This document shows positions 7,621 through 19,466 of a stretch of 19,664 nt of DNA, piece after piece. The position numbers and the translations under genes were made by a program. Positions within the stretch are counted from its first letter, which is position 1, and each line of letters begins with the position of its first letter. The notes under the pieces are model-generated. The model ran no database searches, was not told where the DNA came from, and worked only from the letters and a program-made list of their open reading frames with translations. The stretch comes from a virus, in UHGV virus genome UHGV-0301534. One strand, 5' to 3'.

Positions 7621-9038
7621 TGCCGATTCAGCAACTTCCGCTTATGAAAGGTGTCGGCAAAGACTTTAGAAACGCTGACTATATCGACTATCTGCCAGTG
7701 AATATGTTGGCTACACCCAAAGAAATACTCAACAGCAGCGGATATCTTCGCTCATTCCCGGGCATTGCCAAACGTTCTGATGTGAATGGTGTATCGCGCG
7801 GCGTCGAGTACAACATGGCGCAGAATGCTGTTTATCGCGTATGTGGTGGCAAGCTGTACAAAGGAGAAAGCGAGGTCGGTGATGTTGCCGGAAGTGGTCG
7901 CGTATCAATGGCGCATGGTCGGACATCACAGGCTGTAGGCGTTAATGGTCAACTGGTCGAATACCGCTATGATGGCACGGTTAAAACCGTCTCAAACTGG
8001 CCTACAGACAGCGGATTCACACAGTACGAGTTAGGTTCAGTTCGTGACATTACGCGCTTACGTGGGCGTTATGCGTGGTCAAAAGACGGAACTGATTCAT
8101 GGTTCATCACTGACCTTGAAGACGAATCGCATCCTGACCGTTACAGCGCACAATATCGCGCAGAATCGCAGCCTGACGGCATCATTGGCATCGGAACATG
8201 GCGAGACTTCATCGTCTGTTTTGGTTCATCGACGATTGAATATTTTTCCCTGACAGGTGCAACCACTGTTGGTGCCGCTTTGTATGTCGCACAGCCATCG
8301 CTGATGGTGCAGAAAGGCATTGCCGGAACCTACTGCAAAACGCCGTTTGCTGACTCGTATGCGTTCATCAGCAATCCGGCAACAGGTGCGCCGTCTGTGT
8401 ATATCATCGGCTCCGGTCAGGTATCACCAATCGCCAGCGCGAGCATTGAGAAAATACTACGCTCCTACACTGCTGATGAACTGGCTGATGGCGTGATGGA
8501 ATCGTTGCGGTTTGATGCTCATGAGTTGCTGATTATTCACCTGCCGCGCCATGTTCTTGTTTACGACGCATCTTCAAGCGCCAATGGTCCGCAATGGTGT
8601 GTGCTGAAAACAGGCTTGTATGACGATGTGTACCGCGCTATCGACTTCATTTACGAAGGCAATCAGATAACGTGCGGCGATAAGCTGGAGTCCGTGACCG
8701 GGAAATTGCAATTCGACATCAGCAGCCAGTACGGGCTTCAACAGGAACACCTGCTGTTTACTCCGTTGTTCAAAGCGGATAACGCCAGAGTTTTCGACTT
8801 TGAGGTTGAATCGTCAACTGGCGTTGCGCAGTACGCTGACCGCCTTTTTCTCTCTGCAACCACTGACGGCATAAATTACGGTCGTGAGCAGATGATTGAG
8901 CAGAATGAACCGTTCGTTTACGACAAACGCGTTTTGTGGAAGCGAGTAGGGCGCATCAGGAAAAATGTTGGCTTCAAATTGCGCGTTATCACGAAGTCAC
9001 CAGTCACTCTGTCTGGCTGCCAGATAAGGATTGAGTAA
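7620..9038 (+). CDS. 10: tail hub protein (P22 gp10-like), 472 aa
   Basis: Start overlaps the gp4 stop (TAATG); [49 protein letters not shown] matches recalled P22 gp10. Confidence 0.93.
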
Positions 9039-9991
9039 TGGCGGATTCGAATCTCAATGTGCCGGTAATCATTCAGGCTACACGGCTCGACACATCAGTC
9101 CTTCCACGCAATATCTTCTCGCAGTCGTATCTGCTGTACGTTATCGCACAGGGCACTGATGTTGGTAACGTGGCTAACAAAGCCAACGAGGCCGGACAGG
9201 GCGCTTATGATGCACAGGTCAGGAACGATGAGCAGGATGTCACCCTTGCAGACCATGAATCCAGAATTGAAGCTGCTGAAGCAACTATCATCAATCATGA
9301 ACATAGAATTGCAGCAGCGGAAAGCACTCTTGCAGATCATGAAGCAAGGATTACGGCTGCTGAAACAGAGCTGGCTGATCACGATACGCGAATTGCTGCC
9401 AATGAATCTGAGTTAGCAAACCATGATGCGCGCATAACTCAGAATACAACCGATATCGACGCACTTGATACCAGGCTCACAGCGGCAGAGGGAAGTATTT
9501 CGACGCTACAAAGCACAGTTGGTGATCACTCAACAAGAATATCTGCGCTTGAGTATGCCACCACGCGCAAGAAATCAGAGGTTGTTTACTCAGGGGTATC
9601 GGTAACAATTCCGACAGCGCCTACCAACCTTGTTAGCCTGCTGAAAACGCTCACGCCGTCATCCGGCACGTTGGCACCATTCTTCGACACCGTTAACAAC
9701 AAGATGGTTGTGTTCAACGAGAACAAAACCTTGTTCTTCAAGCTGTCGATCGTCGGGACGTGGCCCAGCGGAACCGCCAACAGGTCAATGCAGCTAACAT
9801 TTTCCGGTTCTGTTCCTGACACACTGGTGAGCAGTCGCAACTCAGCGACAACAACCGACAATATCCTGTTAGCTACGTTCTTCAGCGTGGATAAAGACGG
9901 CTTTCTTGCCACAAATGGAAGTACGTTAACCATTCAGTCAAATGGTGCGGCGTTTACTGCCACAACCATCAAGATAATCGCGGAGCAGTGA
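9038..9991 (+). CDS. 26: tail needle (P22 gp26-like N-terminus and coiled coil) with an extended C-terminal knob domain, 317 aa
   Basis: N-terminus [43 protein letters not shown] matches P22 gp26; 14-residue coiled-coil repeats; about 84 aa longer than P22 gp26 (233 aa) with a Ser/Thr-rich C-terminal domain. Confidence 0.9.
9251..9460 (+). repeat. five degenerate tandem 42-bp repeats encoding the 14-residue coiled-coil units ([DN]H[ED]xRIxAAE...) of the tail needle
   Basis: Units at 9251, 9293, 9335, 9377 and 9419, each beginning gaccatgaa / aatcatgaa / gatcatgaa / gatcacgat / aaccatgat followed by aga/agg/cga/cgc-att/ata. Confidence 0.8.
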
Positions 9992-10446
9992 TGATTCAGT
10001 TCAAACCAACGCGAAACATCGACCTGATCGAAGCAGTAGGAAATCACCCTGACATTATCGCCGGGAGCAACAACGGTGATGGATACGACTACAAACCTGA
10101 TTGCCGTTACTTTGAGGTGAACGTGCACGGGCAGTTCGGCGGCATTGTTTACTATCAGGAAATTCAGCCGCTGACATTCGATTGCCACGCCATGTACCTG
10201 CCAGAGATTCGCGGCTTCAGCAAGGAAATCGGGCTGTCGTTCTGGCGATACATTCTGACTAACACCACCGTTCAGTGCGTAACATCGTTCGCTGCACGCA
10301 AATTCCGCCACGGTCAGATGTACTGCGCAATGATTGGCCTTAAGCGTGTAGGAACCATAAAGAAATACTTCAAAGGCGTGGATGACGTGACGTTTTACAG
10401 CGCAACACGCGAAGAACTAATCGACTTCCTGAATCACGGGAGATAG
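9988..10446 (+). CDS. 14: P22 gp14-like virion assembly/ejection-associated protein, 152 aa
   Basis: Assigned by synteny between gene 26 and gene 7; start overlaps the gene 26 stop (GTGATG). Confidence 0.8.
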
Positions 10447-10448
10447 CC

Positions 10449-11141
10449 ATGTTATATGCATTTAAGCTGGGCAGAAAACTGCGCGGCGAGGAACCTTATT
10501 GCCCTGAAAAAGGCGGGAAAGGTGGCAGTTCTGATAAAAGTGCAAAGTATGCCGCAGAAGCTCAGAAGTATGCCGCAGACCTGCAAAATAAGCAGTTCAA
10601 CACCATCATGAACAACCTGAAGCCGTTTACTCCTCTGGCTGATAAGTATCTCGGCAGCCTCGAGAACTTATCGTCTCTGGAAGGGCAAGGTCAGGCGCTT
10701 AACCAGTATTACAACTCTCAGCAGTATAAAGATCTTGCTGGTCAGGCTCGCTATCAGAGTCTGGCGGCAGCGGAAGCAACAGGTGGATTGGGTTCCACCG
10801 CAACCAGTAATCAGTTAGCAACAATCGCACCAACGCTTGGTCAGCAATGGCTATCTGGACAAATGAACAATTACAACAACCTGGCAAATATCGGTCTTGG
10901 CGCTCTTCAGGGACAGGCAAACGCCGGGCAAACATATGCCAACAACATGAGTCAGATTTCGCAGCAAAGCGCAGCACTGGCGGCGGCAAACGCCAACCGA
11001 CCGTCAGCATTGCAGCAGGGTGTTAGTGGTGCTGCATCCGGTGCGCTTTTGGGTGGTGGCATAGCCAGTGCTCTCGAGCTATCAACTCCGTGGGGTGCTG
11101 GTATTGGTGCTGGTCTTGGTCTGCTTGGTTCACTGTTTTAA
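10449..11141 (+). CDS. 7: ejection (internal virion) protein, P22 gp7-like, 230 aa
   Basis: MLYAFKLGRKLRGEEPYCPEKGGKGGSSDKSAKYAAEAQKYAADLQNKQFNTIMNNL matches recalled P22 gp7; Gly/Ala-rich C-terminus. Confidence 0.9.
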   Translation: MLYAFKLGRKLRGEEPYCPEKGGKGGSSDKSAKYAAEAQKYAADLQNKQFNTIMNNLKPFTPLADKYLGSLENLSSLEGQGQALNQYYNSQQYKDLAGQARYQSLAAAEATGGLGSTATSNQLATIAPTLGQQWLSGQMNNYNNLANIGLGALQGQANAGQTYANNMSQISQQSAALAAANANRPSALQQGVSGAASGALLGGGIASALELSTPWGAGIGAGLGLLGSLF

Positions 11142-14429: not shown

Positions 14430-14819
14430 TTAACATTTTCTTTTTACTTTTCCAACAAAAGCTTTGGTTGAATCCATATTCCCATAACCAGAAATGGTTT
14501 TCGACATTAAAACTGTTCCATTAGGATGTATTACCCATGAGTCGATAACTCGTTGAGTTTCGCCATTCGCGCCGATTCCAATGATGGAGTTTTTAGACAA
14601 TGCTTTGTAAGCCATGCCGCCCGCATCCGTCCCAGAATATGTGATACTGGCATCTTCACCGTTTGTCTTAATGATGAATGTTCCACTAAAACCATCTTCT
14701 TCCGGTTGAAAATTATTTCGTTCTGAATAGCTTATTCCGTGCATATCCCCAACGACCCAGCACTCTGCTGAGACAGAAAACGAGAAGACAAGGAAAGCCA
14801 TTGCTATAATCAATTTCAT
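14430..14819 (-). CDS. exported protein of unknown function, 129 aa, with signal peptide and two Cys in the mature part (one next to the predicted cleavage site, one as the last residue)
   Basis: N-terminus MKLIIAMAFLVFSFSVSA-ECW is a typical Sec signal with AxA-like cleavage site; AAGGG RBS 7 nt upstream on the - strand; mature part rich in G/S/T/I/V; occupies the position of P22 sieA. Confidence 0.7.
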   Translation of the reverse strand: MKLIIAMAFLVFSFSVSAECWVVGDMHGISYSERNNFQPEEDGFSGTFIIKTNGEDASITYSGTDAGGMAYKALSKNSIIGIGANGETQRVIDSWVIHPNGTVLMSKTISGYGNMDSTKAFVGKVKRKC

Positions 14820-14834
14820 TTTAAGCCCTTATTG

Positions 14835-15170
14835 TTATTGATTCTTTTTGCACGGAAATGTTTTTCCTACTGCTAGGGCGGTTAGTATAACTGCGCTCTC
14901 ATTTCTTGATTCTGGGTTTTTGTTTAGATATTTCTCAACGATATCGGTGTATTGATACATGTCAACGCCATCAGGAGGACATAGAGAACCAATTAGTATC
15001 AATGAGTCAGTTACTCCGCGCAAATATCCAGTAATGTAAAGCGATGAAAAATCATCACCCTTTTTACCTTGTTGAATGTTGTAAAGAAGGTCATTACCCG
15101 TTTGAAGCTCGCGCAGCTCAGCACTGGAAGAAGAGACAACTGCTAACAAGAACAGTGATAGAAATCTCAT
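14835..15170 (-). CDS. exported protein of unknown function, 111 aa, with signal peptide and two Cys in the mature part
   Basis: N-terminus MRFLSLFLLAVVSSSSA-ELRE is a Sec signal; start codon overlaps the mnt stop (ATGA on the - strand, 15167-15170) with AAGGA 6 nt upstream, so translation is coupled to mnt. Confidence 0.7.
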   Translation of the reverse strand: MRFLSLFLLAVVSSSSAELRELQTGNDLLYNIQQGKKGDDFSSLYITGYLRGVTDSLILIGSLCPPDGVDMYQYTDIVEKYLNKNPESRNESAVILTALAVGKTFPCKKNQ

Positions 15171-15421
15171 TTCAAATCCTTTTCATAAATCTTTTTAAGT
15201 GTCTCAAACACTATAGCCTTGAACTGCTCAGCCTGCTGATCAGCCAAGCGTTCAGCTTCGTCGCGATATCCTGTAATCGGTGATGGTTTTGATAGTGCAT
15301 CCTGAACGATTTGTAATAACTCAGAGTTCATTGACCTTCCGTTAGCCTCGGCTCTTAATTTCAATTTTTCTCTTACTTCCAAAGGCATACGGAAGTTAAA
15401 GTGCGGATCATCTCTAGCCAT
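15167..15421 (-). CDS. mnt: Mnt repressor (ribbon-helix-helix), 84 aa
   Basis: Product MARDDPHFNFRMPLEVREKLKLRAEANGRSMNSELLQIVQDALSKPSP... matches recalled P22 Mnt; the ORF-track 207-aa version is an upstream extension running antisense through arc/ant. Confidence 0.9.
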   Translation of the reverse strand: MARDDPHFNFRMPLEVREKLKLRAEANGRSMNSELLQIVQDALSKPSPITGYRDEAERLADQQAEQFKAIVFETLKKIYEKDLK

Positions 15422-15443
15422 GCCATCACTCCAAGTTAGTGTA

Positions 15444-15472
15444 TTGACATGATAGAAGCACTCTACTATATT
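15444..15472 (+). promoter_or_regulatory. Pant promoter (-35 TTGACA 15444-15449, -10 TATATT 15467-15472) with the overlapping Arc operator (ATGATAGAAGCACTCTACTAT)
   Basis: Sequence matches the P22 Pant/Oarc region as recalled; TAGA...TCTA half-sites between -35 and -10; directly upstream of arc. Confidence 0.7.
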
Positions 15473-15477
15473 CTCAA

Positions 15478-15496
15478 TAGGTCCACGGTGGACCCA
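15478..15496. promoter_or_regulatory. Mnt operator (Omnt)
   Basis: Perfect palindrome GGTCCAC-G-GTGGACC at 15480-15494, matching the P22 mnt operator core. Confidence 0.75.
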
Positions 15497-15511
15497 TATT
15501 GTGAGGTGAAT

Positions 15512-15673
15512 ATGAAAGGAATGAGCAAGATGCCGCAGTTCAATTTGCGGTGGCCTAAAGAAGTATTGGATTTGGTCCGCAAGGTGGCGGAAGAGAATGG
15601 TCGGTCTGTTAACTCTGAGATTTATCAGAGAGTAATGGAAAGCTTTAAGAAGGAAGGGCGCATTGGCGCGTAA
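15512..15673 (+). CDS. arc: Arc repressor (ribbon-helix-helix), 53 aa
   Basis: [53 protein letters not shown], near-identical to recalled P22 Arc; GAGGTG RBS at 15503-15508. Confidence 0.93.
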
Positions 15674-15741
15674 AGTTGAAGCCCCAACTGCGGGAACAGT
15701 CAGGGCTTCGGTTGTCAGTAAATCCGTGGAGAAAAACCAAC

Positions 15742-16644
15742 ATGAATAGTATAGCAATTTTAGAAGCAGTGAACACCTCTTACGTACCATTCAACGGTCA
15801 GCAAATTATCACCGCCATGGCTGCCGGAGTTGCATATGTTGCGATGAAGCCAATCGTTGAAAACCTTGGAATGAGCTGGTCAACGCAGCAAACAAAACTC
15901 ATGAAGCAGATTAGCAAATTCAACTGTGTTCATATGAACATGGTTGCCGCTGATGGGAAGCTTCGTAAGTTACTCTGCCTTCCTTTGAAGAAGTTAAATG
16001 GGTGGCTGTTCAGCATCAACCCTGAGAAAGTTCGTGCTGACATCCGCGATAAACTGATTCAGTACCAGGAAGAATGCTTTACTGTGCTGCATGACTACTG
16101 GACAAAGGGAAAGGCAGAAAATGCACGTAAGAAAACATCTGTTGATGACAGGACTCCGCTTCGTGATGCTGTAAATATGCTGGTCAGCAAAAAGCATCTA
16201 ATGTACCCAGAAGCTTATGCAATGATTCATCAGCGTTTCAATGTGGAAAGTATTGAAGAGCTTGATGCATCTCAGATACCGCAAGCCGTAGAGTACATCC
16301 ACAGGGTAGTGCTTGAAGGTGAGTTCATTGGCAAACAAGAGAAGAAAACCAACGAGCTTTCTGCAAAAGAAGCAAACAGCCTTGTATGGTTATGGGATTA
16401 TGCCAACCGTTCACAGGCATTATTCCGCGAACTGTATCCGGCATTAAAACAAATTCAATCGAACTATTCCGGCAGATGTCATGACTGCGGTTATGAGTTC
16501 TCCCGTATTATCGATATAGCGAGAGACGTTTTAATTAATCACACACGAGATGTTGATATCAATGAGCCAGACGGACCAACGAATCTTTCCGCATGGATGA
16601 GACTTAAGAATAAAGAATTACCTCCTTCAGTACATAATTACTGA
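15742..16644 (+). CDS. ant: antirepressor Ant, 300 aa
   Basis: From the internal ATG at 15742 (GGAG upstream) the product begins [37 protein letters not shown] as in P22 Ant; length 300 aa; the 15676 start is a spurious extension. Confidence 0.9.
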
Positions 16645-16663
16645 CAGATAACCAACGCAACGA

Positions 16664-16687
16664 CCCAGCTTCGGCTGGGTTTTTTTA
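16664..16687 (+). terminator. rho-independent terminator after ant
   Basis: Hairpin CCCAGC-TTCG-GCTGGG followed by eight T (16680-16687). Confidence 0.7.
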
Positions 16688-16744
16688 TGCCCAAAATTCA
16701 CCGTAGCCATGCTGCGGCGATTCATTGTATCTGGAGCAAATTAA

Positions 16745-18844
16745 ATGACAGACATTACAGCCAATGTTGTAGTAAGCATGCCTTCGCAACTCTTCACTAT
16801 GGCGCGTTCTTTTAAAGCGGTTGCCAATGGTAAAATTTATATCGGTAAAATTGACACTGACCCGGTAAATCCTGAAAACCAGATTCAGGTTTATGTGGAG
16901 AATGAGGATGGTTCTCACGTTCCTGTTTCGCAGCCAATCATCATTAACGCCGCTGGTTATCCTGTATATAACGGACAGATTGCCAAATTCGTGACAGTTC
17001 AAAGCCATAGCATGGCTGTGTATGATGCATATGGAGCACAGCAATTTTACTTCTCCAATGTCTTAAGATATTCACCAGATCAGCTAAGATATGATCTTTC
17101 ACAGCCAGATGGCGCGAAATTAGTAGGATTTAAAGACACCAATGTATACGATGCAATAAGCTCAATAAGCGTAGATTTCTCAGCGCTTGGAGAGTCAAAT
17201 GGAGCCACCTTGGTTGGCTATAGGGACAGCACCGTTTATACAGCTCTTGATAGATTATACAGATCGTTAGGAGGCGTGATTATATCTCCTCAATGGAAAC
17301 CAGTTGCAGGATCATCAACTATAAGCTTTTCTGGCGGTCTTTATTCTTTTAATGGCGTTAGTGTTATTGGTCAAAATCAGAATGTCACAACAACATCAAG
17401 CACAATATGTATTGTTGTTAAATCAGACGGAACATATGAAGCGCGTGACAGATATCCATTTGACGGCTCGCTACTTATTGCTCATATTAAATCAGGGACT
17501 CTTATAGAATTAATTGGCAATGCAAATAAAAGTGCTTTTGGAATTGCCGGATGCCCATCATCAATACCATGGTTTCCAGGTGAGCTGAGAAGAATAGAAG
17601 AGCAGATTCCAATTTACTGCGCACTTCGTTCTGATGGCACGCTTAGATATTGGACTGATTATGATGTGGCTGTGAAGAAGGCATCCAGCGGGACAACATA
17701 TTATGTGGACTGCACTAACGGTAGTGATACGACTGGAGACGGCACGCAGGCTAAACCATTCCAGCGTATAAAATATGCCATTGAGAAAACCCCGGCAGCA
17801 AGGACAATCATGATAAAAGGCGGGATGGAATATACCCGTGATTTTACATGGAATGTTAGCGTAGTTGACCGCGAGCTCGATTTCATCGGATACGATGGAA
17901 CACCAATTCTGAGCACTGTTGAACCGGCTGCAACGTGGGCGGCACAGGGAAGCGCTGGCGTATACCAGTACACAGGTAATCTTGTTCTAAACGTTGTTGA
18001 CTATGCCAATCTTGATAGTTATGGACATGCTCAGGTTCTAACTCCCGTAGCCAGCCTTGCCGACTGCGTTTCAACACCTGGCTCATCCTATAAAACAGGG
18101 AATACGCTGTATATTCATCTTTTTGACGGGCGAGCTCCTGATTCTAATTCACGGCTTGTTCTTCAATTGACTAATGGAAGAATTCAGGATAATAGCAAAG
18201 TTTATATTGAAAATATTCACTTTAAGGACAGCTTTAGGGGGTTTCAGGCTGAGGTTCAAACGGCGGGTAAAAAAGGATACTTATATGCAAAAAATTGTAT
18301 ATTTGATTTATCTGTGACAAGGAATGCCTTTAACTCTTTAGGTGTAAACTGTATTATGCAGAATTGCACTGCTCAATACGGGATGCAGGACGCATTTAAC
18401 TATCATGCCGATCAGAATGGTCTTGGGATAAAGCCGTGGTTTATCGAAATTGGTTGTACTGGCCGTTGGAGTGGTTTTGATAATTTACCAAATAATAACG
18501 GCTCTACCGCTCATGACGGAACTGTAGGGATACGTTTGAACGGTGAATACTACGGAACGTTTGGCCGTGTAGTTCACGATGTTCATGATGGCACGGTTAC
18601 AGCTAACTTTGGGTGTTACTCGCATGATAGTTCAAGGGCAGACTTTATCGGTGGCGCCTGCTTTACTGCTGGGCAAGGATCCGACTTAACTGGTAAAGCA
18701 AAGTTATATCTTTATGGATGCAGCCATGGGGGACCTAACGCGTCAATTACAAAAGATGGTTTGAGTGAGGTGTGGATTTTCGATACTCCCATAGGGGCTA
18801 ATGCACAATATACCATCGCTTCTCCTTACACTTTTATTCAATAA
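16745..18844 (+). CDS. 9: tailspike protein: P22 gp9-like head-binding N-terminal domain fused to a non-P22 receptor-binding domain, 699 aa
   Basis: First ~110 aa ([86 protein letters not shown]...) match P22 gp9; remainder does not match the P22 endorhamnosidase domain; GGAG RBS at 16733-16736. Confidence 0.9.
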
Positions 18845-18909: not shown

Positions 18910-19149
18910 ATGATCAGACGTAACGCCATCGCGGAGGCTTTCAGAGCCTCCATTTCTATAAATCCTAAAGGTTATCAATACCTTTACACTGATTCTTTCA
19001 TCTCCGAACTACAGCGGAGGGGTATCCATTTTTCAGAAGAGGAGGCTAACAACTGGATATCAAGAGAGCAGACGTACTTTGTCGACAAAACGGCAGAGCA
19101 TAGCGAAAACAGGCTGTGGATGATGGCCAACATGGGGAGGGTCATCTGA
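18910..19149 (+). CDS. hypothetical small protein (79 aa), first gene of a LexA-box-controlled two-gene operon
   Basis: ATG at 18910 with AAGAG just upstream (the track's 18898 start is a TTG inside the LexA box); stop overlaps the next start (TGATG). Confidence 0.6.
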   Translation: MIRRNAIAEAFRASISINPKGYQYLYTDSFISELQRRGIHFSEEEANNWISREQTYFVDKTAEHSENRLWMMANMGRVI

Positions 19150-19466
19150 TGGCGTTCCCGTCTCCGGCGTCTGACTACGTTGAGCAGCGTCTGTCTGTTA
19201 ACGCGATCTGCAATGTAGGCCCAAACACGCTAGTTTTCGAGCGGTCTGGCGGTTACGTTGTGTTGGATATCTCCCTGAAACCAAGGCAGGGTAGTCAGGT
19301 TCTGATCCAGCACGGCGGCGGGACGGAACTTGCCACGTTGAGAGGGCGGTCGCTGATAACCGAAGACGGCGAAGCGATTGAAGGCGAGGCCCTGGATGAT
19401 ATCACTGTCGCCGGCGTGGTGACACACACCATCATCGATGTGAGAAGTGACAGCGTAGCGGTATAA
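19149..19466 (+). CDS. UmuD'-like (LexA/S24 peptidase C-terminal-domain fold) protein lacking the cleavable N-terminal arm and the catalytic serine, 105 aa
   Basis: From the ATG at 19149 the product begins MAFPSPASDYVEQRL, near-identical to the start of processed UmuD' (GFPSPAADYVEQRI); C-terminus LDDITVAGVVTHTIIDV resembles UmuD LDVFGVVIHVV; the SGDSM active-site motif reads SGGYV. Confidence 0.7.
   Translation: MAFPSPASDYVEQRLSVNAICNVGPNTLVFERSGGYVVLDISLKPRQGSQVLIQHGGGTELATLRGRSLITEDGEAIEGEALDDITVAGVVTHTIIDVRSDSVAV

Follow-up and report, generated by a model that had tools for sequence, protein, structure and literature searches.

A P22-like prophage tailspike whose receptor-binding module also occurs in an epsilon15-like prophage

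The gene described here (16745-18844, plus strand) is an intact, modular tailspike gene of a P22-like prophage, encoded by an uninterrupted reading frame of 699 residues in the ORF listing of the window, by which we mean the whole stretch of 19,664 nucleotides that was analysed. We put the probability at about 85% that its product is a functional tailspike made up of an adaptor, a linker and a receptor-binding cassette acquired by exchange. The original prediction had described a mosaic tailspike with a foreign receptor-binding domain. The foreign origin holds, as the same module was found on other N-termini, and the mosaic turned out to have two junctions rather than one.

The gene and its prophage

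The window covers the late region of a prophage of the P22-like (Lederbergvirus) type. Its genes run from terminase, portal, scaffold and coat through homologues of gp4 and gp10, a tail needle with an Sf6-type knob and three ejection-protein homologues to a small minus-strand cargo pair, mnt/arc/ant and the tailspike. The tailspike gene thus occupies the place of a P22-like tailspike, after immI (mnt/arc/ant, with Arc, Mnt and P22 antirepressor domains at 15167-16644) and at the end of the P22-type late operon. A consensus scan picked up a hairpin at 16662-16681 with an 8-bp stem, including five GC pairs, followed by TTTTTTT; going by the P22 gene order, this element would probably serve as a terminator (Table 1).

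The window is collinear with a prophage located beside ybhB/bioA in E. coli STEC346, in blocks that are 95-99% identical. The two diverge in the ejection/immI segment, and the window must therefore come from a related, non-identical prophage. The tailspike itself is already contained in RefSeq as a 100% identical protein, WP_021575271.1, under the bare title "phage head-binding domain-containing protein".

Table 1. Features of the tailspike gene and its upstream signals, in window coordinates.
Feature	Residues	Position	Strand	Remark
Terminator-like GC hairpin with T-run		16662..16690	+	3' of the antirepressor gene (ant), just upstream of the tailspike gene
Ribosome-binding site GGAG		16733..16736	+	8 nt ahead of the ATG; read from the sequence
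Head-binding (tail-adaptor) domain	1-113	16745..17083	+	Pfam PF09008, positions 1-113 of 113, E=3.8e-65
Linker or neck	114-174	17084..17266	+	two copies of GAxLVG(F/Y)(K/R)DxxVYxA(I/L)
Boundary motif, copy 1	123-138	17111-17158	+	
Boundary motif, copy 2	153-168	17201-17248	+	
Recombination junction with the epsilon15-like prophage tailspike	157	17213	+	gene nt ~469, codon 157, inside LVGYRD
Small all-beta domain and connector	175-294	17267..17626	+	AlphaFold2 model, between linker and beta-helix
Right-handed parallel beta-helix	295-699	17627..18841	+	predicted glycan-binding/cleaving domain
Stop codon TAA		18842..18844	+	

Several features of the surrounding region deserve a brief account. Between the ejection-protein genes and immI lies a minus-strand gene pair (14430-15170) that looks like prophage cargo: the 111-aa ORF at 14835-15170 has a hit to Pfam Rap1a (E=1e-14), an immunity protein for type VI secretion effectors, and the only match of its neighbour at 14430-14819 is a PHROG without an assigned function. 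The equivalent place in the STEC346 prophage holds a Panacea-domain gene pair instead. The STEC346 prophage also carries a NUMOD4 homing-endonuclease gene (546 nt) between its gp10 and tail-needle homologues (positions 9870-10715 of its locus, L001); this gene is absent from the window (8750-9035), where the two homologues abut at 9038. Within immI, the mechanical 207-aa ORF at 15167-15790 (minus strand) is over-extended. Its Arc and Mnt domains are confined to the last ~80 residues, so the mnt-like gene probably begins inside it, and as called it overlaps the arc-like ORF at 15449-15673 and, on the other strand, the start of ant. On the 3' side of the tailspike, where the prophage end is unlike that of P22, a GC-rich (54%) ORF at 19116-19466 (plus strand) matches a PHROG UmuD-like protein (E=1e-43) and is preceded by an 83-aa ORF without an assigned function.

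Adaptor, linker and exchanged module

The first piece of the protein was recognized as a head-binding domain both by Pfam PF09008 and by the PDB head-binding domains of Sf6 and P22. It shares 101 of 112 residues (90%) with Sf6 gp14 and 83 of 112 (74%) with P22 gp9. The earlier description of the first ~110 residues as nearly identical to P22 gp9 was right about the type of the domain, and with 74% identity it overstated the closeness to P22; judged by sequence, the domain is Sf6/HK620-like. A search of all PDB chain sequences matched Sf6 gp14 over aa 1-120 (E=8.5e-64) and P22 gp9 over aa 1-118 (E~3e-49), and gave nothing significant past aa ~128. At the DNA level, megablast aligned the 5' end of the gene, at 82-93% identity, with the starts of tailspike genes from 22 phage records and from about 1,120 of 5,426 E. 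coli genomes. These matches all start at gene nt 1 (one at nt 49) and end at nt 215-371, which corresponds to aa 72-124; P22 itself is absent among them. The decay of similarity had been placed at residues 105-125, in good agreement with PDB matches that end at aa 118-120 and megablast matches that end by aa 124. Taken over all other P22-like tailspikes, similarity gives out at aa 109-124. The tail needle of the window (9038-9991, plus strand) has an Sf6-type knob domain (PF16532, E=1e-107), so that, taken with the Sf6-like head-binding domain, the tip of the virion is of the Sf6 and not of the P22 type.

One could still regard the gene as an ordinary, diverged full-length orthologue of the P22 gp9 endorhamnosidase, since the gene position, the N-terminal domain and the general beta-helix fold class are all the same. 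We consider this reading next to impossible. Similarity to gp9 stops at aa 118, the whole-chain Foldseek TM-score to the P22 structure 2xc1 is 0.15, and the C-terminal part has its 97% identical counterpart in a protein whose N-terminus is not of the P22 type. Collinearity over the full length was tried directly and failed, as the alignment to 2xc1 and 8tvr spans aa 1-118 only. The remaining ~580 residues are, as had been claimed, without detectable relationship to the P22 endorhamnosidase domain, nor do they resemble any solved chain. The modular tailspike thus resembles Sf6 gp14 and P22 gp9 (PDB 7sg7, 2xc1, 1lkt) in its head-binding domain, in its gene position after ant, in the plan of adaptor, neck and right-handed beta-helix and, as regards the phage backbone, in the Sf6-type needle knob. 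It lacks sequence similarity to them after aa ~120, its small beta domain ahead of the helix is an addition, no separate C-terminal domain is predicted, and the endorhamnosidase active sites of Sf6 and P22 cannot be aligned with it.

It is worth pointing out that base composition is of no help in locating the foreign part. The gene is indeed AT-rich, with 42.6% GC against 51% in the coat and portal genes, as was noted at the outset. The head-binding segment (41.9%) and the immI region upstream (42.2%) are just as AT-rich, and low GC was for this reason rejected as a marker of the foreign segment. Likewise, the reported richness of the C-terminal part in N, G, T and S is real but modest, at 33% compared with 25% in the N-terminal part.

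The second piece, the linker, is the private part of the gene. Nucleotides 17085-17212 of the window are matched among the 5,426 E. coli genomes only by STEC346, and nothing else in E. coli matches gene nt ~372-468 (aa ~125-156). It is this segment that makes the gene a three-piece mosaic with two junctions, one at aa ~110-124 and the other at aa ~157. The linker was predicted to be helical in the AlphaFold2 model, at low confidence, and contains an imperfect repeat: in the alignment of the repeat, 9 of 31 residues are identical, and all nine lie inside the 16-residue core of the boundary motif (Table 1). The double motif is also present in Serratia fonticola P0011, and the motif alone accounts for a weak match between the tailspike and AV101 TSP3.

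The second junction can be placed with precision, because the third piece occurs elsewhere without the first two. The whole tailspike gene was found in just one of the 5,426 complete E. coli genomes, that of STEC346, at 99.9% identity. Two others, 19AR0656 and NRZ94505, contain gene nt 469-2076 alone, at 97.3% DNA identity, and a sensitive blastn search of E. coli for diverged copies of the module found none outside these three genomes. In 19AR0656 and NRZ94505 the segment makes up the 3' end of a 727-aa gene (WP_235411875.1) of another podovirus prophage, which lies beside yfgI, has a T7 gp14-type core protein and a GH19 lysin, and is epsilon15/Uetakevirus-like. Identity between the two genes, counted in 15-nt blocks, jumps from 2-8 of 15 to 14-15 of 15 at gene nt 470, and the megablast match in the epsilon15-like gene begins at query nt 469. 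The proteins are identical at 534 of 552 residues (97%) from aa 148. The 727-aa protein has its own T7 gp17-like N-terminal adaptor of ~175 aa and a single copy of GAxLVGYRD, and its prophage differs both in backbone and in insertion site (yfgI as opposed to ybhB/bioA). The foreign origin of the module is shown directly by this attachment to a different N-terminus.

In lytic coliphages, conserved motifs at the boundary between anchor and receptor-binding domains have been put forward as hot spots of recombination, and the same study reported none in Lederberg- and Uetakevirus prophages (PMC10408124). In the present case the junction between prophages of just these two types, Lederberg and Uetake, is itself formed by a boundary motif, with the reservation that it may not be the same motif as the one in that study.

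Both tailspike genes reside together in STEC346 (L001, 20001-22100, and chromosome, 1400033-1402216), so that one chromosome harbours two unrelated podovirus prophages with tailspikes whose receptor-binding modules are 97% identical. One may ask how the resident prophages avoid superinfection exclusion at the level of the receptor, or do without it. The window showed no genes for O-antigen modification.

The module travels well beyond E. coli. The S. fonticola P0011 protein (701 aa, 69% identical overall) combines the same head-binding domain with the same module (72%), which makes the P22-type fusion more than a one-off. In K. pneumoniae prophages adjoining dacD, the module stands behind a T7 gp17-like N-terminus in proteins of 719 and 727 aa, at 87-92% identity. 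It follows a CBA120-type Tail_spike_N domain at 65-68% identity, forms a short second tailspike in the Przondovirus Henu1 (gp43, 53%), and has relatives in Asteriusvirus and in Serratia and Klebsiella jumbo phages (29-49%). In Henu1 gp43 and the 719-aa tail fibre proteins of K. pneumoniae the shared module covers aa ~150-699 of the tailspike, while the adaptors and hosts differ. Among the phages of E. coli, Klebsiella and Serratia, the cassette circulates on no fewer than five kinds of N-terminal adaptor.

The beta-helix module and its family

An AlphaFold2 monomer model built on 25 homologues was confident over aa ~175-699, where the block pLDDT is mostly 85-98. Confidence was poor in the head-binding domain and linker (pLDDT <50), at the N-terminus, where the alignment is shallow. 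The original prediction of a beta-helix is borne out by the model, in which a right-handed beta-helix of the kind found in P22-like tailspikes runs to the C-terminus. The helix opens with a beta-helix N-terminal cap motif of 29 residues (aa 318-346). It is preceded by the small beta domain, with ten short strands at aa 177-256 and a block pLDDT of 84-94 over aa 181-260 and 64-92 in the rest of aa 175-294. This small domain is conserved in closer relatives only, and the wide family begins at about aa 295.

That family is large. A HMMER scan with aa 175-699 against 1.84 billion representatives found 1,848 clusters at E<=1e-3, of which 174 reached E<=1e-30; most matches align to aa ~295-675 at 30-38% identity, and the family size of ~1,850 refers to clusters at 50% identity in public data. 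The curated collections were nearly silent on it. Pfam gave no match above the gathering score past aa 113 of the tailspike, including to the curated beta-helix families Beta_helix and Pectate_lyase_3, and assigned no family to 10 sampled distant members. An NCBIfam search yielded just a 24-bit match, at the cap motif, and a profile search of PDB sequences also matched the cap motif alone, weakly. The module is accordingly a beta-helix family outside Pfam and without a solved structure.

A comparison of 38 distant members indicates where an active site might lie. The polar residues D419, R463, E489, D549, Y553, E568, N585, S587, H590, R597 and D612 are invariant or at least 90% conserved, and the conserved positions from 549 to 612 (549-554, 568, 585-590, 597 and 612) are spaced about one helix rung apart. 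This pattern would fit an active-site groove, and on its strength we predict that the module is catalytic. The alternative, that the beta-helix binds a glycan without cleaving it, in the manner of an adhesin-type spike, seems to us improbable. A set of Asp, Glu, His, Arg and Tyr residues stays invariant or nearly so across members only ~30% identical, with a spacing of about one rung that recalls the active-site grooves of beta-helix glycanases, and the best structural matches of the model are enzymes. To our knowledge, podovirus tailspikes of this architecture have also been enzymatic wherever tested, which likewise speaks against a mere adhesin. Among the closest known systems are the beta-helix glycanases BT_1002 (5mqp), the pectate lyase Pel9A (1ru4) and the epimerase AlgE4 (2pyg); they are 8-15% identical to the module, with no relationship at the Pfam or sequence level, and their catalytic residues may not be equivalent.

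Putting these elements together, the gene consists of a family-conserved adaptor, a short private linker and a receptor-binding cassette that is exchanged by recombination inside the conserved GAxLVGYRD boundary motif. By analogy with P22 and Sf6, the protein is expected to form homotrimers, docked on the tail hub through their head-binding domain (aa 1-113). The small beta domain and beta-helix (aa ~175-699) would then bind, and probably cleave, a host surface polysaccharide. This would open a path for the virion to the outer membrane, the site at which the Sf6-type tail needle acts.

Receptor, host range and implications

The tailspike sequence did not reveal the host specificity. All three module-bearing genomes among the 5,426 of E. 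coli have an identical O8 polymannose cluster, wzm-wzt-wbdD, with protein accessions for wzm, wzt and the methyltransferase that agree between STEC346, 19AR0656 and NRZ94505; the O8 cluster is present in 303 of the 5,426 genomes overall. All three also have a Klebsiella-type group 1 capsule locus upstream of gnd. Taken at face value, the host genotypes favour O8 as the receptor. Two caveats apply. With their identical flanking proteins and common IS scars, the three seem to belong to a single clonal lineage, so the association with O8 does not count as three separate observations, and a prophage may persist in a host whose capsule has since switched. The accession of the tailspike, WP_021575271.1, is numerically near WP_021575224, 227, 228 and 229, which belong to the O8 methyltransferase and to neighbours in the capsule/O8 region; this weak and circumstantial closeness hints that the genome from which all of them were first entered was an O8 strain of the same lineage.

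The main competitor of the O-antigen is the capsule. The module could be a depolymerase for a Klebsiella-type group 1 K antigen rather than an O-antigen glycanase. Both the P22-like and the epsilon15-like prophage would then gain entry by removing the capsule, in the way that CUS-3, itself a P22-like phage, deals with K1. We regard this as a serious possibility, if somewhat short of even odds. The nearest relatives outside E. coli (87-92%) are in K. pneumoniae prophages, the relative at 53%, Henu1 gp43, serves as second tailspike in a Klebsiella Przondovirus, and others belong to the tails of Klebsiella jumbo phages; second-tailspike and jumbo-phage tail positions are typically occupied by capsule depolymerases. 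STEC346 and 19AR0656 have a K locus in common, and a rare one, with its wzy found in 9 of the 5,426 genomes. Against this, NRZ94505 (NZ_OZ501598) has a different K locus and yet the same O8 cluster. The capsule-locus glycosyltransferase gene wbuB, which is intact in 19AR0656, is frameshifted in STEC346 (locus L007, 24995-26220; chromosome, 1872994-1874219), and the capsule may therefore be defective in the very strain that has both copies of the module. Characterised P22-like and epsilon15-like phages, moreover, have mostly the O-antigen as their receptor. The Klebsiella relatives could also be accommodated by an O-antigen receptor, for the O8 polymannose has the same structure as the Klebsiella O5 antigen, which would explain how close they are.

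The comparison with tailspikes of proven or predicted O8 specificity leans the other way. AV101 TSP1, an Agtrevirus tailspike, has been shown experimentally to be O8-specific (PMC10791037), and G7C RBP1 and MK-13 RBP1 were predicted to be of an O8 subtype (PMC10408124). TSP1 resembles the tailspike in its general beta-helix class and possibly in host serogroup. When all four AV101 tailspikes were compared, no similarity was detected between TSP1 and the module, a point in favour of the capsule. Membership in the known O8 subtype of the TSP1 type was rejected, since it takes at least 30% identity in the receptor-binding domain (PMC10408124). A search of the E. coli genomes with the TSP1 receptor-binding DNA had no match and so supplied no comparator, and G7C and MK-13 were not among the best 30 of 68 rows of the phage protein search or in its displayed organism tallies. 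The literature offered little more: for the substrate or K type of Henu1 gp43 or related Klebsiella phages the search returned mentions in reference lists only, the phi1_06600x phages were not found, nothing relevant turned up on polymannose or endomannosidase tailspikes, and neither the tailspike protein nor the strain appears in the supplementary tables of PMC10408124.

On balance, the most probable receptor is a glycan of Klebsiella type that E. coli O8 strains display. We lean slightly to the O8/O5 mannan, to which we give a little less than an even chance; the group 1 capsule is a strong second candidate, and some other glycan is unlikely. Our more specific proposal, a tentative one, is that the module represents a new glycan-degrading family and that the substrate of this branch is a glycan common to E. 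coli O8 and Klebsiella. One option is an endo-mannanase acting on the O8/O5 polymannose, different from the AV101 TSP1 type and possibly of the enzyme class that was reportedly characterised in biochemical work on coliphage Omega8 in the 1970s; the other is a depolymerase for a group 1 capsule type.

The tailspike is of a familiar sort: modular, P22-like, and with a receptor-binding domain that has been exchanged horizontally. The modular exchange of tailspikes is well documented (PMC10408124, PMC10791037), and the current understanding is not overturned by this mosaic. The points of modest interest are the sharp junction between Lederberg- and Uetake-type prophages, the duplicated boundary motif and the large uncharacterised family. 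The tailspike sets the host range of the prophage. Its locus illustrates cleanly, and in nature, the transfer of a single receptor-binding cassette between podovirus backbones that are unrelated and share one chromosome. The junction is sharp to the base pair and lies in a conserved boundary motif. It provides a defined splice point for the engineering of tailspike swaps; the beta-helix family, in turn, could yield a new depolymerase or a typing reagent for E. coli O8 with group 1 capsules and for related Klebsiella.
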